This document shows, piece by piece, positions 1 through 17,770 of a DNA stretch of 18,002 bases (position 1 is its first letter; every line of letters begins with the position of its first letter). Under the pieces are notes generated by a model, which was not told where the DNA came from, did no database searches, and saw nothing but the letters and a program-made list of their open reading frames with translations. Source of the DNA: a virus; UHGV virus genome UHGV-0701411; one strand, given 5' to 3'. A program made the position numbers and the translations under genes.

Positions 1-333
1 GCAAACAACTTTAAGCCAATGTGCGATGCGCTGAATATGGCCCGTGCCGAGATGGGGAAAACGACGCAGCAACACCACTACACAAACGAGAGCAATATGA
101 TTTCTCGTATCGTTCTTGGTGGGCTAACTGCTAAGCAGTGGGCGCGGATAAATGGCTATTCTGGCGAACCTCGCGACCATATGAACGCAGAACAGCTTGA
201 GCACCTCTCATATCTCGAAAGCACCAATATCACGTTAATTGATATGGGCATGGAATATGAGCAGCGCAAAGGAGAACTCACCCGCCTGTCGCAACGCTGG
301 CTCGCCAAGCGTCTGGAGGCGCTCAATGTCTAA
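1..333 (+). CDS. Hypothetical small protein conserved in P4-like islands (possibly Ash-family); start may be at ATG 19 or upstream of the window
   Basis: Open frame runs from position 1 with no stop; first ATG at 19 has no obvious SD. Stop TAA at 331-333. Stop overlaps the start of the next ORF (ATG 326), typical of coupled phage operons. Family name is from memory of the protein sequence only. Confidence 0.5.
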   Translation, partial: ANNFKPMCDALNMARAEMGKTTQQHHYTNESNMISRIVLGGLTAKQWARINGYSGEPRDHMNAEQLEHLSYLESTNITLIDMGMEYEQRKGELTRLSQRWLAKRLEALNV

Positions 334-508
334 GCCAACAGGAATACCACAACCACAAAAACGCTACAAAGATGCCCACGGAGCACTCGTTACTGTCGAA
401 AGCGTGTCTCACAACCGAGTGACGTTTTATCGCGACGGGTATCAATCGCCATGCGTACAACCGCTGGCACGTTTCATGAAGGAGTTCGCGGAGGTTAACA
501 AATGCTAA
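326..508 (+). CDS. Small protein, DUF4222-like (60 aa, MSKPTGIPQPQKRYKDAHGALVTVESV...)
   Basis: ATG at 326 overlaps the upstream stop. Short, charged protein resembling the small DUF4222-type proteins found next to primases in P4-like prophages (recalled, not searched). Confidence 0.55.
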   Translation: MSKPTGIPQPQKRYKDAHGALVTVESVSHNRVTFYRDGYQSPCVQPLARFMKEFAEVNKC

Positions 509-1163
509 CCGCCCAGAAGAAGATATTTTCACTGGCTGGTATATCGCCAAAATCCAGCAATATGACAGCAAAGTCTGGCATTAATACAGCAGATACAAGC
601 AAAGTTTATCATTTTCTGGTGGTAGGAGCGGATGCCTTAACTATGTCAGAAATTACGGTCGATGGTGTTAGCATTGAGAAGGTCAGCGGCTGCGCCAGAG
701 AATTTCTGGTCGTAGATGGCTTTCTCTGCTCGTGTAGTGACTCCACAAAAACCTTCGTCCACGCGCGTGACGTTAACGAAATGAGCGCGATGTACTGTGC
801 ATCTGGTGCTTCCAATAGTGAGTTTTCGGAGTCCATAAAAAAGAGCTTGCCGTTATGCGGCAACACGGTTTATGGTTATAAGGCACCTCATAAAACGGGT
901 GCCGGGATTGGCGTCCTGAAAATTCTGAAGGCGACATATGACGCGCCGAGCGTCTTTTTTTATGTCGTAGGTCTGACTCACCCATTTTTTGGGCGTTGGT
1001 GTATAATCCAGCGCCTTTGTCAATCAATGGTGGCTCAGGCGGGGGCTTCTTCGGAAGCGCCGGTATCCTTCAGAGCCGGTTACGCCAACCCTGTCTGGGC
1101 TACCACCAGCGAAATTGGCGTTTCCGGTGGTAGCGTAACCTGCTATCTGAAGGAGGCTGCCAC

Positions 1164-2841: not shown

Positions 2842-5193
2842 ATGCGAAACATTGATCTTATCCGTCAGGTTATCAGTGCGTCTGAAAACAACTGGCCTCA
2901 TGTGCTGGGCTGCCTGAACATAAATGTCCCTGACTCTCCGCGCCGTCATGCTCCCTGCCCTGCATGTGGGGGCAAAGATCGATTCCGGTTCGATGACAAC
3001 GGGCGCGGTAGCTTCATCTGTAATCAGTGCGGCGCTGGTGATGGGCTGGATTTAATTAAACGCGTAAATAACTGCGACACAACAGAGGCGGCGCTTCTTG
3101 CCGCTGATGTTCTGGGTATTGATTACCGGACAACGGAAACACCAGAAGCCACCAGCCAGAAACGGGAACAACTGGAAACCGAGCGCCAGCGACGCGAACA
3201 GGAGCGCCTGAAAAGGGCAGAGAAGGACGAACAACAAAGACGGGATACGTTTTCCCGTCAGTTTGATGACATGCGCAGAAAGGCTGTAAACGGCAAATCT
3301 GATTATCTGGTTGCGAAAGGGGTAGGTGATTTTACATTCCCCGTGTTGCCCGATGGATCTCTGTTGCTGGCGCTGGTGGATAAATCCGGCGCAGTCACAG
3401 CAGCACAGACTATTACCTCACATGGTGAAAAAAGACTCCTGACAGGTTCGGCAAAGCGGGGGGCATATCACGCCATAAACGCACAGAAACGACCTCACAG
3501 CATCATAATTGCTGAGGGGGTGGCTACCGCCCTGTCGTGCCATTTAATTCGCCCTGACGCAATGACAGTGGCAGCAATCGACGCTGGCAACCTGTTGCCA
3601 GTAGCGGAAGTCATGCGCAGAACATATCCACAGGCACAAATCATCATTGCCGCAGATAACGATCACCAGCAAGGAAACTCCGAAAGTGGAGGGATCAACA
3701 CGGGGAAAGATGCCGCAGAGAGGGCCGCTATTTCCGTAGCTGGCTGGGTGTCTCTGCCACCGACTGACTATAAAGCCGACTGGAACGACTATCACCAACA
3801 ACACGGGCTGGCGGCAGCCACAGCAGCATTTAAAGATTCGATGTACCAGCCACGGGGGAAAGGGGCGCAGGTGAAAAATCACAAACAGCCAGTCGGGGCG
3901 CTGAATGAGATCAGTTCTGGCGAGGTGTTAAGCGATGATGAAATTGCTGTCCTCGAAGAAATCAACCGGACGTTTACGCATGTCACCATTGGCGGGAAAC
4001 ACAAGGTGGTGTCGCTAAAGCCTTCTCAAACCGGCGGTGTATCGCACGTTTTCGAGGATTTATCACAATTTCAGCATTATTTTCATCATAAACCGAGAGT
4101 CGCCAGAAAGCTGGCGGGATCGGCGTGGCTGTCATGGAGTGGGAAGAACTACAAGCCAGGAGGCGTAGGATTTTATCCAGTACCAGGCAAATGCCCTGGC
4201 GATGTTTTTAATCTGTATGAGGGGCTGGCACTGGAACCAATTGAAGGAGATTGCACGGTATACCTTAATCACCTGTTGCAGGTTGTCTGTGCCGGTAATG
4301 AAGAGGCATACCAATATCTTATCCAGTGGATGGCGCACATTATCCAAAAGCCTGATGAAAAACCGTCCGTGGCAATCGTGATGAAATCTGTCCCGGGCAC
4401 AGGGAAAGGCACAACGGTTAAACCGCTGCTGCAAATACTGGGGCAGTACGCCGCCCACATTAACGGGGCGGGACATATTTCAGGGCGCTTCAATTCAATA
4501 CTTGCTAACAAGCTACTGGTATTTGCTGACGAAGTGACGATCCACAAGCCGTCTGAAGCTGACAGACTTAAAGCGATTATTAGCGAACCGACGTTTAACC
4601 TTGAGCGCAAGGGAATTGATGCTGAACCAATGCCGAATTTTGCCCGGTTGATATTTGCCAGTAACAGCACACAGGTATTACAGGCAGGGATAAGAGAGCG
4701 CCGCTATCTCGTGCTTGAGCCATCTCCTGAAAAAGCACAGAGCCGGGAGTATTTTGATCGGCTGTACAGTTGGCTTAATGATGGCGGTGCCGCAAAGTTG
4801 CTTTGGCATCTTAAAGGGGTGGATCTCTCAGGTTTTGACCCTCAACGAGCGCCACAGACCGATGCCTTACGTGAAGAAATCTTGCTGGGGCTGTCTGGCG
4901 TTGAATTGTTTCTTTATGGCGAGCTAATCAATGAACCTCCGTTTAATGGCGAAGTCCGTTTGTTTGCAAAGGATATGGTTAGTCGATTTGTAGCGTGGTC
5001 GCTTGAGCGTGGGGAAAAGCTTAAAGAGCCAGCAGCCAGATCACTACTGGGTAAATCACTTGCACAAATGGGGCTGGTGAAGCATGGAAGACCAGACCGA
5101 GGGAATGGCGTGTTCTACGAACTACCAGAGGTCGGAGTTCTACAGGCTGCGTTTGCCCGTCTGATCGGTATGGGGGGTTATGATGTTTTTTAA
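2842..5193 (+). CDS. P4 alpha-type bifunctional DNA primase/helicase (783 aa)
   Basis: N-terminal zinc ribbon CPACGG...CNQCG. Central TOPRIM-like segment (IIIAEGVATALS, AADND). C-terminal P-loop NTPase with Walker A VMKSVPGTGKGT and Walker B LLVFADEV. Architecture matches P4 alpha / D5-like primase-helicases. Confidence 0.93.
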   Translation: MRNIDLIRQVISASENNWPHVLGCLNINVPDSPRRHAPCPACGGKDRFRFDDNGRGSFICNQCGAGDGLDLIKRVNNCDTTEAALLAADVLGIDYRTTETPEATSQKREQLETERQRREQERLKRAEKDEQQRRDTFSRQFDDMRRKAVNGKSDYLVAKGVGDFTFPVLPDGSLLLALVDKSGAVTAAQTITSHGEKRLLTGSAKRGAYHAINAQKRPHSIIIAEGVATALSCHLIRPDAMTVAAIDAGNLLPVAEVMRRTYPQAQIIIAADNDHQQGNSESGGINTGKDAAERAAISVAGWVSLPPTDYKADWNDYHQQHGLAAATAAFKDSMYQPRGKGAQVKNHKQPVGALNEISSGEVLSDDEIAVLEEINRTFTHVTIGGKHKVVSLKPSQTGGVSHVFEDLSQFQHYFHHKPRVARKLAGSAWLSWSGKNYKPGGVGFYPVPGKCPGDVFNLYEGLALEPIEGDCTVYLNHLLQVVCAGNEEAYQYLIQWMAHIIQKPDEKPSVAIVMKSVPGTGKGTTVKPLLQILGQYAAHINGAGHISGRFNSILANKLLVFADEVTIHKPSEADRLKAIISEPTFNLERKGIDAEPMPNFARLIFASNSTQVLQAGIRERRYLVLEPSPEKAQSREYFDRLYSWLNDGGAAKLLWHLKGVDLSGFDPQRAPQTDALREEILLGLSGVELFLYGELINEPPFNGEVRLFAKDMVSRFVAWSLERGEKLKEPAARSLLGKSLAQMGLVKHGRPDRGNGVFYELPEVGVLQAAFARLIGMGGYDVF

Positions 5194-5223
5194 TATAGTC
5201 TTTTTACAAGAAGATCGCTTTTA

Positions 5224-5328
5224 CCTGTACCACCTATACCACTTTGCTAATTCAGTATTAAAAACAGTGCGTTATAGTGGTACAGGTCAATATCTTACCT
5301 ATACCAGACCTGTACCACCTATACCATT
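5224..5328. repeat. Iteron-like repeat cluster A: three copies of CCTGTACCAC(C)TATACC, two direct (5224-5242, 5309-5328) and one inverted (5271-5288)
   Basis: Read directly from sequence. Lies just 3' of the primase stop; candidate primase/replication-protein binding sites (ori/crr-like) or recombination sites. Confidence 0.6.
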
Positions 5329-5600: not shown

Positions 5601-6327
5601 CTATTGCATACCGCAGGGAATGACCAGAACGGAGCGCGAAGAATTAAAAAGTTTCGCTACACAGTGCGGGAATGCTGGCGACATCCAAAGTCTGGAACGC
5701 ACTTTAATTATGATTGCGCACTGGATGCGCCAGGGGCAAAGAGTTTCATTTACTGAATATGCCAGCCAGTGGACAGAGGCACAGCGCGAACGGAGCGACG
5801 GTAATCACTCAACACCCGAAATGGCGAAGCAATGGCCTTTCAGTGGTAAACGCTGTATCAGTCCCGGTGGTTCAGATTATTACCCTGCTGGTGTGGGAGA
5901 TGAGCCATGTTGTGACGAGACTGAAATCCGCCACGCAGTGACAGTAATTACCGCTGAATACCCACAATTTAACCTTGACGGACTGGCGCTCCACAACCGG
6001 AATGCGGACTGGGAAAACCCGCTTGATAACCCGTCATTTATCGTATCGGCGAAAAGCTGCCTGAGATGGATCAGAGACAACGGGATGAGTAATGCCCAGA
6101 TTGAGAGCTTCCCGCAGGATAACCCCACATCTGACACGTTGAAGCATGAAGTGGAGCGATATAACCAGATAAACCACCAGCACAGTGATCACCCGCACTA
6201 TATCCCCAACGGAGCATTTATTGCGGCGATGGTGGCAAGCGGCTACAAGGTTAAGCCAGCGGGAAGAATGAACGCATTTTTCAATATTTCAAAAAAGGGA
6301 TTATGTGCTGCTATGGGTAAAAATTAA
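5590..6327 (+). CDS. Hypothetical protein (245 aa)
   Basis: ATG 5590 preceded by AGAGG; 11-nt overlap with the upstream ORF; no recognisable domain. Confidence 0.6.
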   Translation: MNNNYCIPQGMTRTEREELKSFATQCGNAGDIQSLERTLIMIAHWMRQGQRVSFTEYASQWTEAQRERSDGNHSTPEMAKQWPFSGKRCISPGGSDYYPAGVGDEPCCDETEIRHAVTVITAEYPQFNLDGLALHNRNADWENPLDNPSFIVSAKSCLRWIRDNGMSNAQIESFPQDNPTSDTLKHEVERYNQINHQHSDHPHYIPNGAFIAAMVASGYKVKPAGRMNAFFNISKKGLCAAMGKN

Positions 6328-6332
6328 ATAAA

Positions 6333-6437
6333 TGGTACAGGTCTGTACAGGTGGGGAGAGGTCATTTTTACCCACCTGTACCACCTGCAGGCCGCGCCAC
6401 ACAAGGGTTTGTGACATGGTGGTACAGGTGGTACAGC
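6333..6437. repeat. Iteron-like repeat cluster B: GGTACAGG / CCTGTACCACCT copies at 6333-6356, 6371-6391 and 6418-6437, partly arranged as an imperfect palindrome
   Basis: Same core motif as cluster A; together the clusters bracket the 5370..6327 module. Confidence 0.6.
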
Positions 6438-6801
6438 AAAAACAGCGATTTTCTTTATAAGGTATGTTTTGCTCATCTGGCAGACGGAGGTATTCGCTGC
6501 GGTTTGGCACATAGCCCAGAATAGCAAAGAGTTTTACGAGACTTTTGTAAAATCCAGTGTACAAGGGCGTGACGTTTTTGAAGGAGAGACCTACGAAATT
6601 TTCGTAGTTCAAAAAATAGCCTCTGAGATGTTGTTATGCCTGTTCAGCAAACCATCCGCATAGCTGATCGCGAATCAAATTACCAATGGAGCCAGAAGCA
6701 AGGGCAGAACTGAAAAGCTCACGCCATGAAGAATAATGCGACTCCATAAATATAGTTTTTAGAGTCCATAAAAAAACTGTCAAAACCTGACATACAGAAC
6801 G

Positions 6802-6835
6802 ATGCCACCAGCTACTGAACGGTGGCATTTTTTTG
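6802..6835 (+). terminator. Rho-independent terminator candidate (ATGCCACC-loop-GGTGGCAT followed by T7)
   Basis: 8-bp GC-rich stem, 11-nt loop, then TTTTTTTG on the + strand. Confidence 0.6.
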
Positions 6836-6854
6836 TGCTATTTGTTTCATATTT

Positions 6855-6916
6855 TGCAATCACAATGATGAATGTTGCGTTTTATGAAACTATAATAACT
6901 GTTGTTTTATACAGTT
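6855..6916 (+). promoter_or_regulatory. Putative promoter (-10 TATAAT at 6891-6896) with a LexA-box-like palindrome AACTGTTGTTTTATACAGTT (6897-6916)
   Basis: CTGT-N8-ACAG with an AT-rich spacer matches the E. coli SOS-box consensus CTGT-(AT)4-ACAG. It sits between the -10 and the RBS of the 6930 operon. The -35 is unclear. Confidence 0.4.
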
Positions 6917-6929
6917 CTAAGGGGGCGTT

Positions 6930-7103
6930 ATGGCTATTTCAGTAAAGCCAGTATTGATAAGTGAGAAGCAAATGGAAGCGATAAAGAAAATTCAGGAGGA
7001 GCAGCGTAAAAAATCAGAGGTAGGAGTTGCGCCAACGATCCACGAAATTGCTCGGGGATTAATGGATAAGGCGCTGGCTTACACTTTAACTGGACGTGGG
7101 TAA
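6930..7103 (+). CDS. Small protein (57 aa, MAISVKPVLISEKQMEAIKKIQEEQRKKSEVGVAPTIHEIARGLMDKALAYTLTGRG), possible ribbon-helix-helix fold
   Basis: Absent from the ORF track because it is short. SD AAGGGGG 4-5 nt upstream of ATG 6930; stop TAA at 7101-7103, 4 nt before the next start. The strand-helix-helix pattern is inferred from the sequence only. Confidence 0.45.
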   Translation: MAISVKPVLISEKQMEAIKKIQEEQRKKSEVGVAPTIHEIARGLMDKALAYTLTGRG

Positions 7104-7107
7104 ATCA

Positions 7108-8574
7108 ATGGCTACGTGGCAACAGGGTATTAATTCTGGTGGTTTTCTGGCTGGCATTGGTGCGCAAAATGAGAATGCGCCAAAGGCAAGCGACATTAAC
7201 GCAACGCTTGGTATGATCCGCGAAAACAATGAACTGGCTCGATCAGGTGCAAATAACGTTGCTCTGACAGGTCTTCGTGGTCTGGCTGGAGTTGCTGATA
7301 TTTATAAGCAGCAGCAACAGCAGGAGCGTAAAGCGGCATTCCAGAAAGGTTATGCAGATGCTTATGCGTCCGGTGACAGGGAGCAGATGCGTAATCTTAT
7401 TACAGCATTCCCAGAAGAGTTTGAGGAAGTCCGTAAAGGGATGAGTTATGTCGATGATGCTCAAAGGGATGATTATGGCAATCTGGCGCTCAAAGCACAG
7501 GTAGCCTCATCGCTTGGTCAGGGCGCATTTGGCAGGTTCATGATGGATAATGAGCAGGAGATGCGTCGTTTAGGTATCCCTCCAGAAACTATTGCTGAAA
7601 TGCAGGTTAATGACCCGCAGGGCTTCCAGCATTTCGCAGGTAATCTGGCGCTGTTTTCTCTCGGTCATGAGAAGTATTTCGATATCAAAGACCAAATGGA
7701 AGGTCGGGATATTGAGCGTGGCAAGTTGGCAGAGACAATCCGCAGCAATCAGGCTGGCGAAGCACTTCAGGCGAGAGGGCAGGATATTAGCCGAGCAAAT
7801 GCGTTAACGTCAGCATATGCCCCAACAGCAGCAATGCAGAATTACAATCAGTACGCTCAAATGTTAAAGGCGGATCCAGAGGGGGCGGCGGCATTTGCGG
7901 CAGCGGCTGGAATTAATACAAACGCCAAAAAATTAATGAGTGTTAGAGAAAACGATGATGGCACTGTCACAAAATACTACACAGACGGAAGTGAAGAGCA
8001 TGGAAAACTAAACCAGCCAATATCTGGAGATGGGTTTCGTCCAATAGCTTTGCCAACAGCCCAAAAGATCATGGAAAAGTCGCCAGAAGGGGCTAAAAAA
8101 GCTGCTGGATTTGCATACAGAGTTAGGGATGCTCTTGATTCAATGGATACACTGAAAGGCCAGCTTAGCCCACAGCGAGTGGCGATCATTAATAATGCTT
8201 TGGGTAATGGGACGCTGGCTAACTTAACGCTCAGCCCAACAGAGCAGCAATACGTTGTTAATGCTAATGACGCAATAATGGCAATACTCCGTCAGGAAAC
8301 AGGGGCAGCTATCGTACCTGCTGAAATGTCAAAATATTATCAAATGTATTTCCCTCAGCCTGGCGACTCCACAAAAACCATTGATACCAAGCGCCGGAAG
8401 ATGGAAAACCAGTTCAATTCGCTGAAAGCTGCTTCTGGTCGAGCTTATGATGCTTTGCGGGTTATTTCAGCAGTTGACAGAGGGACTTCTTCTTCGTCGC
8501 AGACATTGCCGCAATCTGAGCAGGTATCACAGCCAGCAGCCAGCAGTAATTTTTCTTCACTATGGGGTGATTAA
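7108..8574 (+). CDS. Large hypothetical protein A (488 aa), Ala/Gln/Gly-rich low-complexity, family not recognised
   Basis: Long ORF with start ATG 7108 (track begins at GTG 7096). Stop overlaps the start of protein B (TAATG at 8572-8576). No catalytic motif seen. Confidence 0.8.
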   Translation: MATWQQGINSGGFLAGIGAQNENAPKASDINATLGMIRENNELARSGANNVALTGLRGLAGVADIYKQQQQQERKAAFQKGYADAYASGDREQMRNLITAFPEEFEEVRKGMSYVDDAQRDDYGNLALKAQVASSLGQGAFGRFMMDNEQEMRRLGIPPETIAEMQVNDPQGFQHFAGNLALFSLGHEKYFDIKDQMEGRDIERGKLAETIRSNQAGEALQARGQDISRANALTSAYAPTAAMQNYNQYAQMLKADPEGAAAFAAAAGINTNAKKLMSVRENDDGTVTKYYTDGSEEHGKLNQPISGDGFRPIALPTAQKIMEKSPEGAKKAAGFAYRVRDALDSMDTLKGQLSPQRVAIINNALGNGTLANLTLSPTEQQYVVNANDAIMAILRQETGAAIVPAEMSKYYQMYFPQPGDSTKTIDTKRRKMENQFNSLKAASGRAYDALRVISAVDRGTSSSSQTLPQSEQVSQPAASSNFSSLWGD

Positions 8575-10679
8575 TGGCTAAAGCATGGAAAGATGTTATC
8601 GCCTCTCCACAGTATCAGGCGTTAGCACCAGAACAAAAAGCGCAGGCTCAGGAGCAATACTTCAATGAAGTCGTGGCCCCGCAAGCCGGAGAAAGTGTAG
8701 AGCAGGCTAAGCAGGCTTTTTATGCTGCCTATCCACTACCATCAACGAATGAAATAGACCGATCCCAATCAGCAACTCAAAATATTCAACATACATCATC
8801 TGATAATTCTCTTGCGTCAGGGTATGCAAAGTTAGCTACTCAGCAAAGAGAGGGGCTTGAGCGTTCAGCAGAACAGGGAGCCAGTCTTGGGGCTGCTATG
8901 CGCGATGCTATAACAGGCGAAAGCCGAATGACTCCAGAGATGGAGAGACTGCAAAATGTCGACCTTGCCCCAGAGTTAACCTCACTCAGCATGGATGCTC
9001 TAAAAGCTCGATGGTCTCAACTTTTCGGCTCTGACGCATCTCAGGAAAAGATTCTTCAGAGCATGGGAGCGAAATTAAGGCAGGATGAGAAGGGTAACAC
9101 TATCGTTTCCCTGCCATCCGGTGATTATGCTCTGAACAAGCCGGGTTTATCGCCGCAAGACGTGGCATCGTTTCTGGCTAATGCGCTGGCGTTTACACCA
9201 GCGGGCAGGGCTGGAACGGTGCTTGGTGCCATAGGAAAATCAGCAGCTACAGATTTAGCACTACAGGGAGCCACCAGCCTTGCTGGTGGAGAAGATATTG
9301 ATCCGTTACAAACGGTAATTTCTGCTGGCATTGGTGGTATTGGTAAGGGGCTGGAAAATACAGCGAGTGCGGTTTCGAGGGCTGTTCGTGGTGATATGTC
9401 GCCTGAAGCAAAGGCTGCTGTCAACTTTGCATCGGAAAGAAATCTGCCGTTAATGACCAGTGACATGCTGAAAGATAAAACCTTTATGCAGAGTCAGGCT
9501 CAGACATTAGGCGAAAGAGTTCCTTTTTTTGGAACCGGTAAGAATCGGCTGAATCAACAACAAGCACGAGAAAATTTAGTCAGAACATTTAGCGATGGTC
9601 TGGGTGGCATTTCTGATAAACAGCTTTATGAATCTGCGACTAAAGGGCAACAAAAATTCATTGAGGCAGCAGGAAAGCGATATAACCGCATAATTGACGC
9701 TATGGGGGATACCCCTGTCGATCTCTCAAACACGGTAAAAGCTATCGACAATCAGATTGCCGTGTTAAGCCGCCCTGGCAAATCTCAGGATAGAGCCGCG
9801 GTAAAAGTCTTGCAGCAATTTAAAGACGATATCACCAGCGGACCAAATGACCTGCGTCTGGCGAGGGAAAACAGAACCGATCTTCGAAAGCGATTTATGG
9901 CGTCATCTGACACTGTTGATAAAGATACGCTCCAGAAAGCCAGCGATATTATCTACAAGGCATATACGGCGGATATGAAAAAAGCCGTAGCCAAAAATCT
10001 TGGAGCAGACGAAGCCATTAATATGGCAAGGGTTGATCGCTCATGGTCTAAATTCAATGACATGATGGGAAGAACGCGCGTTCAAAAGGCAATAGCCAGC
10101 GGCAAGGCCACGCCTGAGGATGTAACAAAACTCGTTTTTAGCCAAAGCCCATCAGAACGTTCTCAGCTTTACAGGCTTCTGGATGACAATGGTAGGCAAA
10201 ACGCACGAGCAGCCATAGTTCAGAATGCTGTAGATAAGGCGACTGATCCGTCTGGAAATATCAGTGTTGAGAAGTTTATTAATGCGTTACACCGGAACAG
10301 GAAGCAATCAGCAACTTTCTTTAAAGGCGTACATGGAAAGGAACTGGACGGCGTTATTAAATACCTCAACGATACAAGACACGCGGCAAAAGCGAACGTT
10401 CAAAACTTAAATGGTCAGCAGCTTTATGGATTGTTAGTTGGTGGTGGCATCATAAACGCAGCAGTATTAGCGGGGATGCTAAAAACGGCTGCGTTTGTTG
10501 TTCCTGCTGCTGGTGCCGTAGGCGGAGCAGCGAAGGCATACGAAAGCCCTGTTATTCGAAATGCCTTGTTACGTCTGGCAAATACGCCAAAAGGTAGCAC
10601 AGCATATGACAGAGCGATCAGTACGGTCACACAATCACTGACCACAGCAGCACAAGCATCGCAAAAGGAAGCTCAATAA
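8574..10679 (+). CDS. Large hypothetical protein B (701 aa), Ala/Gln-rich with a C-proximal Gly/Ala-rich hydrophobic segment
   Basis: ATG 8574 is translationally coupled to A. Hydrophobic stretch LYGLLVGGGIINAAVLAGMLKTAAFVVPAAGAVGGAAKAY encoded at about 10424-10546. No enzymatic motif seen. Confidence 0.85.
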   Translation: MAKAWKDVIASPQYQALAPEQKAQAQEQYFNEVVAPQAGESVEQAKQAFYAAYPLPSTNEIDRSQSATQNIQHTSSDNSLASGYAKLATQQREGLERSAEQGASLGAAMRDAITGESRMTPEMERLQNVDLAPELTSLSMDALKARWSQLFGSDASQEKILQSMGAKLRQDEKGNTIVSLPSGDYALNKPGLSPQDVASFLANALAFTPAGRAGTVLGAIGKSAATDLALQGATSLAGGEDIDPLQTVISAGIGGIGKGLENTASAVSRAVRGDMSPEAKAAVNFASERNLPLMTSDMLKDKTFMQSQAQTLGERVPFFGTGKNRLNQQQARENLVRTFSDGLGGISDKQLYESATKGQQKFIEAAGKRYNRIIDAMGDTPVDLSNTVKAIDNQIAVLSRPGKSQDRAAVKVLQQFKDDITSGPNDLRLARENRTDLRKRFMASSDTVDKDTLQKASDIIYKAYTADMKKAVAKNLGADEAINMARVDRSWSKFNDMMGRTRVQKAIASGKATPEDVTKLVFSQSPSERSQLYRLLDDNGRQNARAAIVQNAVDKATDPSGNISVEKFINALHRNRKQSATFFKGVHGKELDGVIKYLNDTRHAAKANVQNLNGQQLYGLLVGGGIINAAVLAGMLKTAAFVVPAAGAVGGAAKAYESPVIRNALLRLANTPKGSTAYDRAISTVTQSLTTAAQASQKEAQ

Positions 10680-10740: not shown

Positions 10741-11139
10741 TTAACACTTGCCTTTAACATTGCCGACAAATGAGCCTGTAAATGAGCCTATATCAGATCG
10801 ACTAATTGTTCGTGTATGGATCACTTTTCCGTCATTTGAGATTGCCCATGTGACAAGCGTCAGTTGACCATCTCGATAGCTTCTTCCCATCATGGCATTC
10901 GGAGATAGCGGGTAATAATCAATACCTCCACCTATACCATCTTTTGCCAAGATAAGATCCGCCTTCTCTTTACTTATTACCAAATGAAATGTATCTGGTA
11001 TAGATGATAACTTATAGTTATACCCATCTGAACTTGAGGCTTCTTGTCCTTTCAGATCACCAATAATCCAGCATTCAGCGTTCGCTCCAAAAGAAGCAAA
11101 TAATAAACCGGAGACAACCAATCGCTTCAATTGATTCAC
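10741..11139 (-). CDS. Small secreted/periplasmic protein (132 aa) with Sec signal peptide MNQLKRLVVSGLLFASFGANA
   Basis: GTG start at 11139 preceded by SD GGGAGG with a 6-nt spacer on the minus strand; hydrophobic h-region and ANA-E cleavage-like site. The gene is AT-rich (about 41% GC). The track ORF extends to 11208 but that start lacks an RBS. Confidence 0.6.
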   Translation of the reverse strand: MNQLKRLVVSGLLFASFGANAECWIIGDLKGQEASSSDGYNYKLSSIPDTFHLVISKEKADLILAKDGIGGGIDYYPLSPNAMMGRSYRDGQLTLVTWAISNDGKVIHTRTISRSDIGSFTGSFVGNVKGKC

Positions 11140-11254
11140 ACCAACCCTCCCTTTAGCGTTGTTTAGAATGGCAATCATCATATATCCAAGACATGGCATT
11201 TGGTACATAGCTTGGGTCGGGATTTCAAATCCGATCCCCGTTGATGGGGCCGTT

Positions 11255-11410
11255 ACAGTACGCGCATATCCGCTTTATGTGAAACAGGAAGATTTTTCTG
11301 ATATCACTGCCACAGCAAAACACCAATTTCGTGACCAGTACGCGCGCGAGGGGTATCAGTTGCAAAAAGTTTTGCAACTACGTCCGACCAGTACGCGCAC
11401 GATGGAGGGG
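11255..11410. repeat. Three copies of the motif (A/C)CAGTACGCGC(G/A) at 11255-11266, 11333-11353 and 11386-11410, plus a 9-bp-arm palindrome GTTGCAAAAAGTTTTGCAAC at 11359-11378
   Basis: Read directly; they lie in the 520-bp intergenic region upstream of the secreted-protein gene. Confidence 0.65.
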
Positions 11411-11618
11411 AGTACCATAAAACTGCTCTCTACATAAGTCAGAGTGGTGGTGATGTGTTGATTATCGGCGTATATGCGCACAGGACGCGCTATGACGATG
11501 TTTTATGCGGGTACACTAATCACATGTATCTGGTGTGATAAATCGCGTTACATGACCTCTCATGTTGTGCTGGTGGTTATCACGACTTTCTGAATCTGGC
11601 CTTTGCCTGATATTTTGC

Positions 11619-11644
11619 GACAAGTACGCGCGCGTAGCATCGAC
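11619..11644. repeat. GACAAGTACGCGCGCGTAGCA repeat containing the perfect 12-bp palindrome TACGCGCGCGTA (11625-11636)
   Basis: Self-complementary alternating CG core; a near-identical copy lies at 12912-12936. Confidence 0.65.
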
Positions 11645-12468: not shown

Positions 12469-12571
12469 GCTCAAATATCAGCCAGAAAATAACGGACCAA
12501 TCACAAAGCTATCGCTGTGTTGTTGGTTCAGAGCTGGGCTGTGTTGGTTCAAAATAATCTGAGAGGCAGAA

Positions 12572-12853
12572 ATGATAAGGGACAGGAAAGCTGAAGAGCT
12601 GGAGTCAAAAGGGCTATACCGGAGAGCTGCCGCACGATGGATGGAAGTCATGCTGTTATGCACCGAGGACGATGATCGGGAATGGATAAAGCGCCGCCGT
12701 GAAACGTGTCTGGAGAACGTGAAGCGCCCGCCCGTGAAGGTTGAGGACTTTGGCGACCTGCATAAAGCTGTTACCGAAACGCAACACCGCATGGGGATAG
12801 CGCAACCGAACGGTAACGCCTTCCGGTTAAATGGCGGCAAGAGGCAAAGGTAG
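12572..12853 (+). CDS. PerC-family-like transcriptional regulator (93 aa, MIRDRKAEELESKGLYRRAAARWMEV...)
   Basis: SD GAGAGG 5 nt upstream of ATG 12572. The N-terminal AEELE-KGL-RRAA-RW pattern resembles PerC-type prophage activators; the family call is from memory. Confidence 0.55.
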   Translation: MIRDRKAEELESKGLYRRAAARWMEVMLLCTEDDDREWIKRRRETCLENVKRPPVKVEDFGDLHKAVTETQHRMGIAQPNGNAFRLNGGKRQR

Positions 12854-12857
12854 ACCA

Positions 12858-12902
12858 CCAGAGGGAAATCATCCTCTGGCTGGCGGTTTCTGGTATTTCG
12901 GG
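12858..12902 (+). terminator. Hairpin CCAGAGG-N8-CCTCTGG followed by a T-rich tract; possible terminator of the PerC-like gene
   Basis: 7-bp perfect stem 5 nt after the stop codon; downstream tract GGTTTCTGGTATTTCG is only moderately U-rich. Confidence 0.4.
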
Positions 12903-12911
12903 ACAAGTACG

Positions 12912-12936
12912 CGCGCGCGTAGCACCCAATCGGTGA
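12912..12936. repeat. GACAAGTACGCGCGCGCGTAGCACC repeat (14-bp palindrome TACGCGCGCGCGTA at 12918-12931)
   Basis: Fifth copy of the GTACGCGC motif family; near-identical to 11619-11644. Confidence 0.65.
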
Positions 12937-13150
12937 GGAAATAGCGGCGACCTGAATGGTCAAAATCACAACGCAGCTATCCCCGTAAGCAGCGCTTAAC
13001 GGAATAGCAGTAACCTGAATCCAGTGGGGAGGGGGTAGTCAAATCTCTACAGCCCTGACTATCCGGGACTGCCAGCCCCATCGTTTTTTTATACCCGCGA
13101 AAAATGAAATTTAATCCGGGCGTGTTTCATCCTTCCAGAGGGTATGACGT

Positions 13151-13336
13151 ATGACACCACGCGAAATAGCCTTATTGACCATCGCCAAACTTGAGCACGG
13201 AGGCCACCAGCTTACACAGGCAGATCAACGGGAGATAGAACGATCAGTTAATGCCGATATAGCCCGGCGCGACAGGTTCCGCGAAATGATGCGAGCACCT
13301 GCCTACCAGTGGAAGAAGCCAGCGCCGCGCAGGTAG
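13151..13336 (+). CDS. Hypothetical small protein (61 aa)
   Basis: SD AGAGGG 6 nt upstream of ATG 13151; basic C-terminus. Confidence 0.45.
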   Translation: MTPREIALLTIAKLEHGGHQLTQADQREIERSVNADIARRDRFREMMRAPAYQWKKPAPRR

Positions 13337-13456
13337 ATATGGGATTATTCCACATGTAACTTATGCGTATTAAGCAAATTTCCTTTATTCACCTTTACAG
13401 AATTGTGAGTACGTCAGTATCGTTATCCTTCCGATTCGCATTTATTCAGGATTTGC

Positions 13457-13999
13457 ATGTACCAGCTAAAGATAACCATCCGAGACAGCAAACCACCTAT
13501 ATGGCGGCGTGTGCTGGTTCCAGAGCAAATCCCCTTTAGTAAACTTCATGCCGTGATCCAGTTAGCTTTTGGCTGGCATGACGAACACCTGTATATGTTC
13601 GAGAAAGGGCGTAAAGGTGATCCAGGTAGCGAGTATCACGTATGGGGTGAGGATGAAAGCATGGGTAACGCGGCAATCACGCCACTATGGGCGGCGCTCC
13701 AGAATGAGGGTGACAAGCTGGTTTACACGTATGACTTTGGCGACTGGTGGGATTGCGTCATTGTGCTGGAGAAGCAAACACACGATACGAGTAATCAGCC
13801 CATTAGCTGCCTGCGTGGGAAAGGCACCACCCCGGCGGAAAACTCAGGCGGCTTGCATGGTTACAATGAATTGCTATTACAGGCCAGAGAGTCTGATAAT
13901 CCTGAGCAGGCCGAGATCCACAATTTCCTGATGCTGGATATTGAACGCCGGGTTTACGACCTGAGCCGCATCAACGACAGATTGCAGGCTATTAACTGA
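13457..13999 (+). CDS. Plasmid pRiA4b ORF-3-like (MM3350-like) family protein (180 aa)
   Basis: Hallmark motifs YQLKITIRDSKPPIWRRVLVP ... LHAVIQLAFGWHDEHLYMF ... YTYDFGDWWDCVIVLE match the conserved signature of this family as I recall it. Confidence 0.8.
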   Translation: MYQLKITIRDSKPPIWRRVLVPEQIPFSKLHAVIQLAFGWHDEHLYMFEKGRKGDPGSEYHVWGEDESMGNAAITPLWAALQNEGDKLVYTYDFGDWWDCVIVLEKQTHDTSNQPISCLRGKGTTPAENSGGLHGYNELLLQARESDNPEQAEIHNFLMLDIERRVYDLSRINDRLQAIN

Positions 14000-14351
14000 C
14001 CCGCATGTATTCACCTGATATTGCGTTATCAGCGCCGCCAGTATCGCGCATAACAGCACAATGACCGGGTAAACCGTAACGCACGACCGTTGCGTTAGTC
14101 TCACCGCCGCGCCGTATCTGGCGCGATTCATACACTGTCACCCGCTCAAGCAGTCCACCAGCAACCATGCTTTCCAGTGTGCGCCGGGTTGATTCGAGCT
14201 GGTGACGCTTATCGAACGACACCATGCCATGAAGCAGGTAGGCCACACCCGACACATCGAACGGCGGCGCACCAATCTCACCAGTCACCCATTCGAGGTT
14301 ATCCGGCTCAAAATAACTGAGTATCTCTTTTTTACGGCTGGTCATTCTCAT
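13992..14351 (-). CDS. Hypothetical protein (119 aa), possibly a winged-helix DNA-binding protein
   Basis: Convergent with the pRiA4b ORF-3-like gene (8-nt overlap); SD-like AAGGAA upstream of ATG 14351 on the minus strand. Confidence 0.55.
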   Translation of the reverse strand: MRMTSRKKEILSYFEPDNLEWVTGEIGAPPFDVSGVAYLLHGMVSFDKRHQLESTRRTLESMVAGGLLERVTVYESRQIRRGGETNATVVRYGLPGHCAVMRDTGGADNAISGEYMRVS

Positions 14352-14471
14352 GGCTGGCTGATTCCTTATTGTGGGATAGCGGTATCATACAATAAGGCGC
14401 AAAAGATAAGAGGCCAGAACAGCAAGCACAAGAGCATAAAATGAGCAACCAAAGGCAGCACCTCAAAATAC

Positions 14472-14738
14472 CGTGTACACAAGGGTGTACCTACTGAGAA
14501 AACGCATTACAAGAAACACAGCAACCACGGGAGTTTAAAGCCACTACTCAATAAACAGATCCAGAATATCGAATAAGCTATCAGCAAAAATCACCAAGCA
14601 GCAAAAAACCATAAAGCCCGCGAAATGTCGGGCTTTTTTGTTATCATGAGCTATCATAACGACGCAACAAAGCGCATGATTATGGTGTACACAAAGGTGT
14701 ACCCAATGAGGTTTGGGTACATTGCTTTGGGTACACCC
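14472..14738. repeat. Repeat family GTGTACACAA(A/G)GGTGTACC (14472-14492, 14684-14704) and GGGTACATTGCTTTGGGTACACCC (14715-14738) upstream of the integrase; candidate Int arm-type (attL) sites
   Basis: Near-identical 20-mers about 210 bp apart, directly 5' of the integrase start; related copies at 6555-6575, 11192-11207 and 11505-11515. Confidence 0.55.
14613..14640 (+). terminator. Rho-independent terminator (AAAGCCCG-loop-CGGGCTTT then TTTTTTG)
   Basis: Perfect 8-bp stem with 8-nt loop and a T-run; A-run on the 5' side makes it potentially bidirectional. Sits between the att-like repeats and the integrase start. Confidence 0.7.
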
Positions 14739-14765
14739 CCTATTCAAAGTTTGGATATTCGCAAA

Positions 14766-16025
14766 ATGCCAAAACTAACAGACATGCAGATCCGCGCATG
14801 GATTAAGAGCGGAGAGCGATTCGAGGGGCGGGCAGACGGTAACGGTTTATACCTACGTTACCGTGAAGCCGACAAAACCCCCACATGGAGATTCCGCTAT
14901 AAACTCGCAGGGAAGTCCCGCGCCATGCTAATTGGTTCGTATAGCGAGATATCACTATCAAAGGCCAGAGAGACAGCCAAAGAGCTGTCAGCCAGAGTTG
15001 CTCTTGGCTATGACGTAGCAGCAGAGAAACAGGAACGAAAAGCTGAAGCACTGGCAAAAATGGAGGCTGAGAAAAACGCCATGCGTGTTTCAGATCTGGC
15101 CTCCGAATACTTCGAGCGCCAGATACTTCCGAGATGGAAACATCCCGATATCCTTCGCCGGAGAATTGATAAGGATATTAACCCCTGCATTGGGCATATG
15201 AAGGTAGAGGACGTTAAGCCACGCCACATTGACGACATGTTGAAAGGTATCGTTGACCGAGGAGCACCAACGATAGCAACAGATGTATTACGCTGGACAC
15301 GCCGTATCTTTGACTACGGGATAAAACGCCACGCTCTGGAGATAAACCCTTGTTCAGCGTTTGAAGTATCTGATGCTGGTGGTAAAGAGGTTTCCCGCGA
15401 CCGTTGGCTAACTCGCGATGAGCTTATCAGGCTATTCGAGGCTATGCGCACCGCAAAAGGATTCAGCCGCCAGAACGAACTGACATTTAAGCTATTGCTG
15501 GCACTATGCGTTCGTAAGATGGAGTTATGCGCCGCACGATGGGAAGAGTTTGATTTAGATGGTGCGGTATGGCATTTGCCGGAAGAACGCAGCAAAAACG
15601 GAGACCCTATTGATATACCTCTACCTTCTCCAGCCGTTGAATGGTTGAGAGAACTACACACCTTTTCATGTAATAGCGCATGGGTGCTTCCAGCCAGGAA
15701 GATGCAAAACAGAATGATCCCACATATTCAGGAAAGCACTTTGCCCGTAGCACTGGCTAAGGTTCGCGCCGAAATGCCGGATGTGCCTAATTTCACGATT
15801 CACGACTTCCGACGCACCGCACGTACTCATTTAGCAGCGTTGGGCGTTGATCCGGTAGTCGCAGAAAGATGCCTTAATCACAAAATTAAAGGTGTGGAGG
15901 GTATCTATAACCGTCACCAGTATTTTGATGAGCGTAAAGCGGCGCTGGCGCAGTGGTGTGATTTGCTGGTGGCACTGGAGCGCGGCGAAGAATACAACGT
16001 GACGCCTATCAGAAAGGCAAAGTAA
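14766..16025 (+). CDS. Tyrosine site-specific integrase, P4/CP4-57 type (419 aa; alternative starts 14706 or 14625)
   Basis: N-terminus MPKLTDMQIRAWIK...GLYLRY...WRFRYK matches the P4-type Int N-terminal pattern. C-terminal catalytic signature HDFRRTARTHL ... Y. The track ORF begins at 14625 but overlaps the terminator hairpin, so a downstream start is preferred. Confidence 0.93.
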   Translation: MPKLTDMQIRAWIKSGERFEGRADGNGLYLRYREADKTPTWRFRYKLAGKSRAMLIGSYSEISLSKARETAKELSARVALGYDVAAEKQERKAEALAKMEAEKNAMRVSDLASEYFERQILPRWKHPDILRRRIDKDINPCIGHMKVEDVKPRHIDDMLKGIVDRGAPTIATDVLRWTRRIFDYGIKRHALEINPCSAFEVSDAGGKEVSRDRWLTRDELIRLFEAMRTAKGFSRQNELTFKLLLALCVRKMELCAARWEEFDLDGAVWHLPEERSKNGDPIDIPLPSPAVEWLRELHTFSCNSAWVLPARKMQNRMIPHIQESTLPVALAKVRAEMPDVPNFTIHDFRRTARTHLAALGVDPVVAERCLNHKIKGVEGIYNRHQYFDERKAALAQWCDLLVALERGEEYNVTPIRKAK

Positions 16026-16118
16026 CCGAACAGACCGGAACTAGCCCGACGGGGCGAAAAGCGGAAAGCCTTACCGCCTGTTCCGGTCACTCTTTAAGGC
16101 AGCGCGAAAGGTTACGCT

Positions 16119-17000
16119 ATGAGCAAATTGTTCCAGTTCAAAAGTTGGTTGACCATAGAGGAAACCGCAAACAGGTTAAGCACAACACTCGGTGAAAGGG
16201 TATCTGTAGCCGATTGCCTGCAATTGGCTGTAGAAGGCCACATTACAATTTCAGCGATATTGGACGAAGGCCGTTACGCTATCGCTGCTCAAGTCATCAA
16301 AAACTCGCAACGAAGAGTTTTTGAAAAGTGGATTGTTGAAAATACTAACGAAGGTGCGGTAATTAGAACTCCTGCCGGTGATGAATTCTATACCAATGAA
16401 CAATTGGATTATGAATACGAAGATATAGAAAGAGTCAGTGATGTTTTTCGTATTAATCATGGCATATACGATCTACCGATGGTTGGGGCTGAATCTTTAG
16501 ATGTTATGCACGAGTTTGACCTTTCACGCGACAAGGTTCCCCGTGAATTTCACAACATGGAAGGTGCTTTCCTCTTAACAGAATTTGGTCTGGTGAATAT
16601 TCTGAACGCGTTCAATGAATATGCCATCAAGTCAGATGAAAATGGCAAACCTAAACTGTACGACAAAGAATCACAGAGGTTTGTTGACTTTAGCCTCGAT
16701 GGTTATCATCCCTTTTTCTATCCTGCTGATGGGCTGGGTAATGTCGAGTTCGTATTCAGAAAAGAAAATATTGCAGAATTTGAAAAGAAAACACTCAGTG
16801 ATAACAACAGTCTCCTGAACCTCGATGAAAGCCTTTTACTGCTTGGCGCGGTGCTCAACGCTTTAAAGAAAGCCGAACCAACTTCTAAAAGGTGGACACA
16901 AGAAGCCCTCAAAGCAGAAATGCTGGATAGGGGTTTAAAATTAAGCTCCCGCTTACTGGATGAATATTTCTCATCAGCTAACAAATCTTTTAAATCATAA
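16119..17000 (+). CDS. Hypothetical protein (293 aa), AT-rich cargo gene between int and alpA
   Basis: SD GAAAGG 7 nt upstream of ATG 16119. About 42% GC versus about 52% in flanks. No recognisable domain. Confidence 0.8.
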   Translation: MSKLFQFKSWLTIEETANRLSTTLGERVSVADCLQLAVEGHITISAILDEGRYAIAAQVIKNSQRRVFEKWIVENTNEGAVIRTPAGDEFYTNEQLDYEYEDIERVSDVFRINHGIYDLPMVGAESLDVMHEFDLSRDKVPREFHNMEGAFLLTEFGLVNILNAFNEYAIKSDENGKPKLYDKESQRFVDFSLDGYHPFFYPADGLGNVEFVFRKENIAEFEKKTLSDNNSLLNLDESLLLLGAVLNALKKAEPTSKRWTQEALKAEMLDRGLKLSSRLLDEYFSSANKSFKS

Positions 17001-17004
17001 AGAT

Positions 17005-17036
17005 AATTTCGCAACGAAAATCCATTTTTCGTTGCG
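17005..17036 (+). terminator. Perfect inverted repeat TCGCAACGAAAA-N5-TTTTCGTTGCGA; terminator or operator candidate
   Basis: 12-bp stem, 5-nt loop, immediately after the 16119..17000 stop and before alpA. Confidence 0.45.
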
Positions 17037-17105
17037 ATGACATCTAATCCCCCTGCTCACATGATTACCGTAACTTCAACAGCTATCACAGGAGTTACAG
17101 GACAT

Positions 17106-17324
17106 ATGACAGCACATAACGCAGCGCAATCAGCACTTCCTACTACTGGATACATCCGCCGTTTTCGTATGCCGGAACTTCTGGGTGTTTCCATGCCAAC
17201 CATTGACCGCTGGGTTAAGAACGGCACGCTGCCGCGCCCAGTGAAACTCACCGATAACGTGACCGCCTTTGATGCGGTAGAGATTAATAACTGGCTGGCT
17301 GAGCGCCGGGGAAAGGTGGCGTAA
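17106..17324 (+). CDS. alpA: AlpA-family phage transcriptional regulator/excisionase-like protein (start uncertain: 17037, 17061 or 17106)
   Basis: Segment IRRFRMPELLGVSMPTIDRWVKNGTLPRPVKL...AFDAVEINNWLAER matches the AlpA/Vis-type MerR-like HTH pattern. Position after int is as in CP4-57. Confidence 0.75.
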   Translation: MTAHNAAQSALPTTGYIRRFRMPELLGVSMPTIDRWVKNGTLPRPVKLTDNVTAFDAVEINNWLAERRGKVA

Positions 17325-17758
17325 TGAAAAAGAAAAACCGCCCCGTACAGCAGGCGGCTAACTCAGATATTCGCACGTCTGATATTACGCCGACCACCAG
17401 CCCGGTACAAGTACCTAAGCGTACCCCAAAGAAACACCGCGCCCGCGTCTATATGCTGCGTACTGGTATAGAGGGATGGACAGAAAATGACATTCTTCGC
17501 TACTGCCGTCTGTCTTCTGGTCGTAACTATGCAACAGAGTTAGAACGCCAGCTTGGAATCACTCTGGAGCGTATCGACGAAAAGAATCCTGATGGTATCG
17601 GAACACACCTTCGCTACCGTTTCTCCTGCCGTGGTGATGTTCTGAAAGTGATCACTCATGTTAACCATCTTGCGAACATAAATGATCACAACGGACTTTC
17701 TCAGCAGGAAATTGCCGACATTCTGAAACTCTACCCGGACGCGTTTAACGCCGCCTAA
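17324..17758 (+). CDS. Hypothetical protein (144 aa) with basic N-terminus
   Basis: ATG 17324 overlaps the alpA stop (TAATG), indicating coupling; no family recognised with confidence. Confidence 0.65.
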   Translation: MKKKNRPVQQAANSDIRTSDITPTTSPVQVPKRTPKKHRARVYMLRTGIEGWTENDILRYCRLSSGRNYATELERQLGITLERIDEKNPDGIGTHLRYRFSCRGDVLKVITHVNHLANINDHNGLSQQEIADILKLYPDAFNAA

Positions 17759-17770
17759 CGGAGACTGAAA

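Follow-up and report, generated by a model that had tools for sequence, protein, structure and literature searches.

Which proteins does a three-gene operon on a small mobile element encode, and what could that element gain from them? The operon lies within the virus genome UHGV-0701411, a stretch of 18,002 nt that was analysed as a whole and is referred to as the window. A preliminary description of the window saw in this operon the best candidate for an undescribed system and found no recognisable domain in its two large products. Judged by their homology, these products (A and B) are ejection proteins of the types represented by gp20 and gp16 of phage P22, and the element, judged by its genes and their order, is a phage-inducible chromosomal island (PICI) of the kind of EcCIMP1 from Escherichia coli. 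The module comprises:

6525-6929, + strand: conserved leader of the module with terminator, promoter, inverted repeat, LexA-like box and ribosome binding site (RBS)
6930-7103, + strand: o57, 57 aa, lead gene of the module
7108-8574, + strand: A, 488 aa, ejection protein of the P22 gp20 type by homology
8574-10679, + strand: B, 701 aa, ejection (DNA transfer) protein of the P22 gp16 type by homology

The three open reading frames (ORFs) and their coordinates were confirmed exactly as first described, and so was the overlap of the A stop and the B start, which share TAATG at 8572-8576. The TAA stop of o57 (7101-7103) is separated from the ATG of A by 4 nt. A GTG at 7096 is an alternative start that gives a protein of 492 aa; we placed the start at 7108 because the conserved gp20 N-terminus MATWQQ and RefSeq agree on this position. 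The lengths of the ORFs are far above chance expectation, and all three are conserved genes. Both large proteins are rich in Ala, Gly and Gln (13.9%, 8.6% and 7.8% in A; 14.3%, 7.6% and 7.1% in B), as had been stated, but low-complexity is too strong a term for them, given that P22 gp16 is biased in the same way.

Residues 12-228 of A match the Pfam family PF16928 (Inj_translocase; 280.6 bits with a cut-off of 29.7, E = 1.1e-83, positions 1-217 of the 218 in the profile), which Pfam describes as a DNA/protein translocase of the phage P22 injectosome. The complete protein (residues 1-488) matches phrog_917 with 4e-142, a family whose text reads 'released from the phage upon host infection'. By tblastn, the N-terminal half of A shows 55% identity to P22 gp20, and residues 50-455 show 52% identity to APSE P33. 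Two P22-like prophage contigs (L016, L020) encode gp20 proteins with 87-88% identity to residues 1-253 of A. In an alignment with gp20 of P22, of the E. coli Lederbergvirus N7 and of Kapi1, the helper phage of EcCIMP1, the approximately 70 N-terminal residues of A are near-invariant, and the MATWQQGINSGGFLAGIG N-terminus conserved in gp20 proteins is found in A. The gp16 gene follows directly downstream, and the names given by RefSeq to the two genes are 'phage DNA ejection protein', 'injection protein' or 'P22-gp16 family'. In contrast to the gene 7-20-16 setting of P22, the whole window contains neither a gp7 nor a gp14 gene; a tblastn comparison of 18 window ORFs with the virion region of N7, which could have uncovered a hidden gp7 or Arc homologue, matched A and B only. 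The position of A outside a gene 7-16 block is a difference of context and not of protein family. A search by sequence of the PDB returned no solved structure for A or B. Homology thus identifies A as an ejection protein of the P22 gp20 type, and by the same homology it would be the periplasmic-tunnel component of the DNA conduit.

Residues 19-700 of B match phrog_770, 'DNA transfer protein', with 3.3e-161. Our own Pfam scan gave no match for B, presumably with a library older than PF26808 (Phage_P22_gp16), the family for which a sequence identical to B has a precomputed match. A metagenomic contig from a genuine P22-like prophage (L010), which also encodes homologues of gp7, gp14, the needle and gp10, has a gp16 with 98.3% identity to B over all 701 aa. 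Identity to gp16 of the E. coli Lederbergviruses N7 and HZ41 is 67%, and to P22 and Sf6 gp16 it is 28-33%, end to end; in tblastn searches 100% of B was covered by gp16 of Sf6 and of P22-like phages. B lacks a transglycosylase domain. These matches establish, at the level of homology, that B is an ejection protein of the P22 gp16 type, which would form the inner-membrane end of the conduit.

The Gly/Ala-rich hydrophobic segment reported close to the C-terminus of B is real. It spans residues ~617-655 (window ~10424-10546) and reaches a maximal Kyte-Doolittle score of 1.79 over 19 residues. SieA is an inner-membrane exclusion protein of P22 that blocks DNA entry, and mutations allowing escape from SieA lie in the C-terminal parts of both gp16 and gp20; gp7 is not involved. 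The hydrophobic segment of B is homologous to the region of P22 gp16 that contains such escape sites: the P22 positions G532 and P546 align to G614 and T638 of B, which are located at and inside the segment. The earlier remark that the arrangement is reminiscent of DNA-pilot or ejection proteins was thus right, as seen from the gp20/gp16 homology. That no domain could be recognised does not hold, since A has the Inj_translocase domain and B a full-length match to the gp16 family.

Like the genes of P22, N7 and HZ41, those in the window show homology over their full length, the order 20 then 16, overlapping stop and start codons, a gp20 with conserved N-terminal domain and variable, mosaic C-terminal half, and a gp16 that is hydrophobic near the C-terminus. 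In contrast to P22, where the gene order is 14-7-20-16-sieA and the genes sit in the phage late operon, the window genes are found on a satellite without coat, portal, terminase, tail and gp7, and are preceded by a small satellite ORF and an SOS-box-type promoter. Clear homology to virion proteins within a complete morphogenesis cluster had been named as the finding that would speak against a new system. The homology is clear, while the cluster around the genes is missing: A and B are the sole virion genes on a satellite.

This satellite has E. coli as its host, and the complete genomes show the operon within an island of ~15-18 kb, located between yicC and dinD or beside tRNA-Thr (thrW). The integrated island begins with integrase, a hypothetical gene, an AlpA-type helix-turn-helix gene, a further hypothetical gene, an AntA/AntB antirepressor, DUF4222 and Ash. 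Ash is followed by four small genes, the primase, o57, gp20, gp16 and a gene on the opposite strand, and the island ends with variable cargo (Abi, pRiA4b-ORF3) and PerC. The island is devoid of genes for capsid, portal, terminase, tail and lysis. The order of integrase, AlpA and primase/replicase, a size within ~10-20 kb and this lack of capsid, tail and lysis genes are those of EcCIMP1-like PICIs. The satellite context was correctly recognised at the outset. The 'cargo position' of the operon between primase and integrase is, however, an artefact, because the window is circularly permuted and its positions 14556-18002 correspond to the integrase side of the integrated island; once integrated, the island has its integrase at the opposite end, and the slot just downstream of the primase is taken by the operon.

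EcCIMP1 is a PICI of E. coli MP1 and its helper, vB_EcoP_Kapi1, is P22-like (Pick, Stadel & Raivio, ISME J 2025, PMC11773190). Its excision requires Kapi1, which also transduces it (PMC11773190). That paper calls islands EcCIMP1-like when they are related in the antirepressor, Ash and primase genes, and the window is related in these genes. Integrase, AlpA, AntA antirepressor, DUF4222, Ash, small genes and primase occur in matching order, followed, again in matching order, by the small ORF (87% identity to o57), ejection-protein genes, variable genes, PerC and pRiA4b-ORF3. In total, 7.4 kb (41%) of the window, including the operon leader and o57, align to EcCIMP1 at 88-99% identity (1-2827, 92%; 2842-3863, 88%; 6528-7078, 92%; 12554-14396, 99%). 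EcCIMP1 differs in its thrW site, in having another integrase and a DUF927 primase, and in its four phage-derived genes, which encode gp14/DUF2824, gp7, a gp20 of 439 aa and a gp16 of 906 aa with a lytic transglycosylase domain. EcCIMP1 gp20 is ~26% identical to A, and EcCIMP1 gp16 gives no BLASTP match with B. The cassette in the window consists of gp20 and gp16 only, which are of another allele type, and has lost gp14 and gp7. In the EcCIMP1 paper the genes were called 'DNA transfer'-like and a packaging role was guessed, but the P22 ejection set was not identified (PMC11773190). Compared to its own helper Kapi1, EcCIMP1 has a gp20 of 26% and a gp16 of 24% identity, so the island does not simply duplicate genes of its helper.

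By gene content and order, the element in the window is thus an EcCIMP1-like PICI, for which induction and transduction would apply by analogy with EcCIMP1. It is a known kind of element with P22-type gp20 and gp16, and the view of an undescribed system is not supported: RefSeq already annotates both genes, and the EcCIMP1 family was characterised experimentally in 2025.

How is the operon expressed? Similarity to islands with a different primase begins at position 6525. The leader contains an intrinsic terminator (stem at 6811-6826 followed by a T-run) and ends with the RBS AAGGGGG. In an alignment of 8 loci from several genera, the −10 element TATAAT (6891-6896) is invariant and palindromes are conserved; the −35 element is poor, and an inverted repeat, TGCAAT...(A/G)TTGC, spans the −35 region (~6856-6880). 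Two nucleotides 3′ of the −10 element lies a LexA-box-like sequence, CTGTTGTTTTATACAG (6899-6914), which we take to resemble closely the LexA site of E. coli uvrB. The motif CTGT-N8-ACAG is present once in the window (0.18 copies are expected by chance), and it has the same offset after TATAAT in relatives from E. coli, Leclercia adecarboxylata, Serratia and Erwinia. From this arrangement we infer that the operon promoter is under LexA control. A copy of a helper late promoter (Q/gp23-dependent) upstream of the operon was considered and rejected: a blastn search of 6500-6935 in 50,697 phage records returned only a match of 39 nt to P1-like ant, and the leader shows no similarity to a P22-type late promoter. 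The 39 nt (6578-6616, in the non-coding leader) are 95% identical to the antirepressor genes ant1/ant2 of the P1-like phages RCS47 and phi456 and are probably a gene remnant.

The first gene of the operon, o57, has 45 homologues, every one of them in Enterobacterales. The family is confined to satellite loci, and P22-like phages lack the gene at the corresponding loci; 20 columns are invariant among 14 sequences of the family. o57 is a real, conserved gene that is specific to the satellite family. The first description had called the ORF ribbon-helix-helix (RHH)-like. An AlphaFold2 model (predicted local distance difference test score of 76) shows an extended N-terminus and helices at residues 12-28 and 37-53, a shape compatible with an RHH fold. 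RHH membership is nevertheless unproven: none of the 45 homologues has an assigned Pfam domain, none of the 14 tested matches Pfam even at E values up to 10, hhalign gives a probability of 1% for an alignment with Arc/Mnt, and fold and profile searches yielded no RHH match for o57. Possibly, o57 is a regulator acting on the inverted repeat across the −35 region.

What could two ejection proteins do for an island that has no other virion genes? In P22, the scaffolding protein brings gp7, gp20 and gp16 into the procapsid while it is being assembled. The three proteins leave the particle before the DNA and build a conduit across the envelope, to which gp20 contributes the periplasmic tube and gp16 the part in the inner membrane. 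Foreign and very different cassettes of ejection proteins function in P22. We favour, with a probability of roughly 0.6, the view that the operon is a virion-internal DNA-ejection module with working ejection proteins, and that the EcCIMP1-like PICI carrying it is mobilised by P22-like (Lederbergvirus) helpers. According to this model, the SOS response would induce the helper prophage and also transcription of the operon from its own promoter with the LexA-type box. The helper scaffolding protein would recruit A and B into helper procapsids like the ejection proteins of P22. In the next infection, A and B would be ejected ahead of the DNA; a conduit with A as its periplasmic tube, B as its end at the inner membrane and gp7 supplied by the helper would then admit the island DNA to the cell. 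Exploitation of a helper phage, a side remark in the preliminary description, would then have been the right idea.

The benefit could be a delivery of the island that is independent of the gp20 and gp16 alleles of the helper. The island could even enter cells with SieA-type exclusion, among them helper lysogens, that are closed to the conduit of the helper itself. That evasion of exclusion is the benefit of having gp20 and gp16 is speculative; the idea stems from the fact that the genes in which SieA-escape mutations occur are exactly those kept by the island.

Several points weigh against this model. The island variant in the window has no gp7 and gp14, so its proteins must be compatible with the copies of the helper. 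B is essentially identical to a circulating phage allele, and therefore no satellite-specific adaptation is visible. Kapi1 transduces EcCIMP1 very inefficiently (~5e3 particles per ml), and a Kapi1-like prophage is present in 2 of 21 EcCIMP1 strains (PMC11773190). Phages that differ widely in gp16 and gp20 are excluded by two SieA types that are themselves highly divergent, which weakens the idea of a bypass. As to the proposed SOS control, at least one CTGT-N8-ACAG was found in 35 of 200 shuffled sequences (~17%), and in several lineages the LexA-like box is degenerate and its spacing is off by one.

Satellites often interfere with their helpers, and the island proteins may instead act against phages, either by producing mismatched helper conduits or, when made in the cell, by disturbing the conduits of superinfecting P22-like phages and thereby adding to the superinfection immunity observed with EcCIMP1. 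The strong divergence of PICI ejection proteins from those of the helper fits this explanation, as does a SieA homologue beside gp16 in sister islands. In Kapi1 lysogens, EcCIMP1 strengthens immunity against Kapi1 by a mechanism that was left unexplained, and no known defence system was detected on EcCIMP1 (PMC11773190). However, induced Kapi1 reaches undiminished titres in the presence of EcCIMP1, and infection of non-lysogens is unaffected (PMC11773190). B, being 98% identical to a functional phage allele, is no obvious poison for a helper particle. With regard to exclusion, ejection proteins work from the outside after ejection and not from the cytoplasm, and the adjacent genes for membrane or secreted proteins (SieA-like, d155, the EcCIMP1 lipoprotein) are better candidates. 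We regard an action against phages as unlikely, although it is the strongest of the competing explanations.

Could the two genes simply be a leftover of the 14-7-20-16 block of a P22-like prophage, captured by recombination and carried passively? The DNA is indeed derived from a phage: at its left edge (~7094) the RBS sequence of the phage gp7/gp20 intergenic region is still present. The alleles are mosaic with phage alleles, and homology to genuine P22-like prophages demonstrates that A and B alleles were exchanged with them. gp14 and gp7 were lost relative to EcCIMP1, and one disrupted copy was found among the 20 best matches, in strain ETEC1731 (NZ_CP122816.1, 70686-75823), where B is interrupted by IS1203, an insertion sequence of the IS3 family. 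A passive relic is nevertheless hard to reconcile with the distribution and conservation of the operon. Counting the operon as present when at least 80% of it was covered, we found it in 315 of 5,426 complete E. coli genomes; promoter and o57 are present in 499 (~9%), and the exact B sequence occurs in 885 index blocks. Hundreds of genomes have the ORFs in intact form. In comparison to two other copies, pN/pS was 0.16-0.29 for A and 0.11 for B, which shows that both proteins are conserved and under purifying selection. Between 6525 and ~10696 the module stays constant while integrase, type of primase and cargo are swapped around it, a conservation of gene neighbourhood across related islands that had been proposed as a check. 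Many E. coli islands carry the four-gene form (gp14, gp7, gp20, gp16) with the same B allele, and the dedicated promoter and lead gene are conserved across genera. A two-gene layout of gp20 and gp16 also arose independently in Serratia islands, with different alleles. Passive carriage thus seems improbable, more so than an action against phages.

The authors of the EcCIMP1 study tentatively favoured yet another function, in which the proteins would redirect helper packaging or capsid assembly to the island DNA. Other PICIs have their packaging or capsid-remodelling genes downstream of the primase, where the operon is found, and ejection proteins do join at the procapsid stage. The homology, however, points to conduit proteins, and Pfam and PHROG searches revealed no terminase, Ppi, Rpp or capsid-size motif, so that we give this view little credit. 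The idea of a membrane-acting toxin, a bacteriocin or a new anti-phage defence, for which the hydrophobic C-terminal segment of B is the one argument, is very improbable, since that segment is homologous to the corresponding region of P22 gp16, A and B are full-length homologues of virion proteins, and PADLOC gave no match for o57, A, B, d155 or six neighbouring proteins.

A satellite operon for virion-related functions is not without parallel. Operon I of the staphylococcal pathogenicity islands (SaPIs), which Ubeda et al. are said to have presented in 2007 as a LexA-controlled operon for morphogenesis and packaging, likewise contains virion-related genes, lies downstream of the replication module and shares the apparent LexA control, which in the window is predicted from the promoter region. 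It differs in encoding capsid-size redirection and a small terminase and not ejection proteins. Capsid-forming PICIs (cf-PICIs) make their own capsids and borrow only the tails of the helper, and P4 remodels P2 capsids by Sid and Psu. Like the element in the window, cf-PICIs and P4-like satellites have genes for some parts of their own virion or manipulate the morphogenesis of the helper; here, in contrast, internal DNA-conduit proteins are the only virion components encoded.

The arrangement extends beyond E. coli. In other Enterobacterales, o57 homologues with the same PICI backbone and TATAAT-type promoter precede other DNA-delivery proteins, virion components whose destination is the cell envelope (loci L088:9001-16988, L094:10001-13662, L099:9001-13011, L093:10001-12064, L096:9001-11602 and L089:9001-10126). 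In Leclercia sp. EMC7 the o57 homologue is followed by genes for four internal virion proteins related to those of Ab31-like temperate podoviruses; one of the four has an SLT domain. Erwinia persicina and one other assembly have a full-length tape-measure protein with a partner of 108 aa at this place, and Serratia silvae has a truncated tape-measure protein. In Raoultella we found a 605-aa protein with an injection-transglycosylase-like C-terminus, and in Klebsiella a protein with an SLT domain, after whose gene comes a Dit-like one. P22-type cassettes (gp14-7-20-16 or gp20-16) are present in Escherichia, Leclercia and Serratia. Tape-measure proteins are targets of the DNA-entry exclusion proteins HK97 gp15 and Ltp. 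It is possible, and we propose it tentatively, that a family of Enterobacterales PICIs with a common backbone of AlpA, AntA, Ash, primase and PerC has, as its sole virion genes, conduit genes of the helper type behind an o57-family gene and a promoter with TATAAT and an SOS-like box, and uses its own alleles to enter excluding helper lysogens. In the open-access literature, with most subscription journals outside the scope of the search, the EcCIMP1 paper was the only one on satellites with ejection proteins, and no description of a general satellite module for an own DNA conduit was found.

The remaining features of the island are:

502-1569, + strand: 'Ash family' ORF, 355 aa (PF10554, 5.8e-34)
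2842-5193, + strand: primase/replicase with Zn-ribbon, Toprim and DUF5906 (Pfam and PHROG DNA primase matches)
10741-11208, − strand: d155, signal-peptide protein of 146-155 aa (phrog_2651, 2e-22)
12572-12853, + strand: PerC-family regulator, an accessory gene (PF06069, 1.7e-30)
13457-13999: pRiA4b ORF-3 family protein, cargo
14556-14576: att core CAGATCCAGAATATCGAATAA, 21 nt, 3′ end of yicC
14625-16025, + strand: PICI tyrosine integrase for the yicC/dinD site (Pfam Arm-DNA-bind_3, Phage_int_M, Phage_integrase)
17037-17324, + strand: AlpA-family regulator (PF05930 Phage_AlpA, 7e-06)

The gene directly after gp16 occupies the slot in which P22 has sieA, and the contents of this slot vary among the islands. 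d155 is 100% identical in three other loci (L005, L006, L014), shares its N-terminal 39 aa with the gene 3′ of gp16 in the prophage that has the nearly identical B (L010), and has no match in Pfam or PADLOC. In sister islands (L105:17858-18472 on the minus strand, L007, L013 and L032) a multi-transmembrane SieA homologue of 204 aa directly follows gp16; it shows 29% identity to P22 SieA over 108 aa and a weak match to the Pfam family SIEA. EcCIMP1 has a lipoprotein in this slot. P22 type-A SieA is absent from the window, from Kapi1 and from N7. These post-gp16 genes (SieA-like, d155, lipoprotein) are candidates for the superinfection immunity conferred by EcCIMP1.

The integrase is 99.8% identical to an integrase adjoining yicC (L002), and the PerC-family protein is 99% identical to its EcCIMP1 counterpart. 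[quoted passage not shown] Rfam models matched isrK (883-960, 67.8 bits) and C4 antisense RNA (1023-1110, 79.9 bits), both inside the Ash ORF, and int-alpA RNA directly 3′ of the integrase (16034-16100). This suggests an RNA-based immunity of the P4/P1 type, and the Ash ORF of 355 aa may be partly over-annotated.

At the att site the right arm is joined to the 21 nt core and then to the integrase arm; matches of the attR side end at 14576 and those of the attL side begin at 14556. The 5,426 complete E. coli genomes contain no such contiguous junction, so the window shows an attP-type junction, which would derive either from an excised circle or from a concatemer or tandem array. No match to the exact attP junction was obtained in IMG/VR or JGI metagenomes, and look-ups of the exact proteins returned singly integrated copies only. 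Between window ends 18002 and 1, 270 nt of the antirepressor gene are missing, as window 1-961 resumes 270 nt farther into this gene. Taken as a permuted circle, the window would represent an element of ~18.3 kb. As the right arm is of the thrW/EcCIMP1 type and the integrase of the yicC type, the element is a modular recombinant.

Several repeats were observed. ACCTGTACCACCTATACCA motifs in direct and inverted orientation are located at 5219-5326 and 6328-6442, and flank two hypothetical genes (76 and 245 aa) that occur only in islands with the DUF5906 primase; the motifs may be iterons or an origin. In strain Res13-Lact-PEB17-18, the right end of the island has a duplicate of a 234 nt segment (6294-6527; L002:25883-26116). 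The variable cargo contains four copies of a repeat of 20-28 nt with GAC(A/C)AGTACGCGCGCG (11321-11405, 11607-11638, 12890-12921), which may mark the edges of exchangeable cargo modules.

It is known that satellites take over or reshape the capsids, terminases and tails of their helpers. To our knowledge, there has so far been no functional analysis of a satellite that supplies injected conduit proteins. One practical consequence is that an 'ejection protein' gene in an E. coli genome does not imply the presence of a P22-like prophage. Both the functional question and the cross-genus pattern are worth following up, and the latter is the most novel lead. If gp20 and gp16 of the island are indeed loaded into helper capsids, the EcCIMP1-like islands would provide a simple and genetically tractable case of a parasite that customises DNA entry by the virion of its helper, and a natural experiment on alleles of ejection proteins versus SieA-type exclusion.

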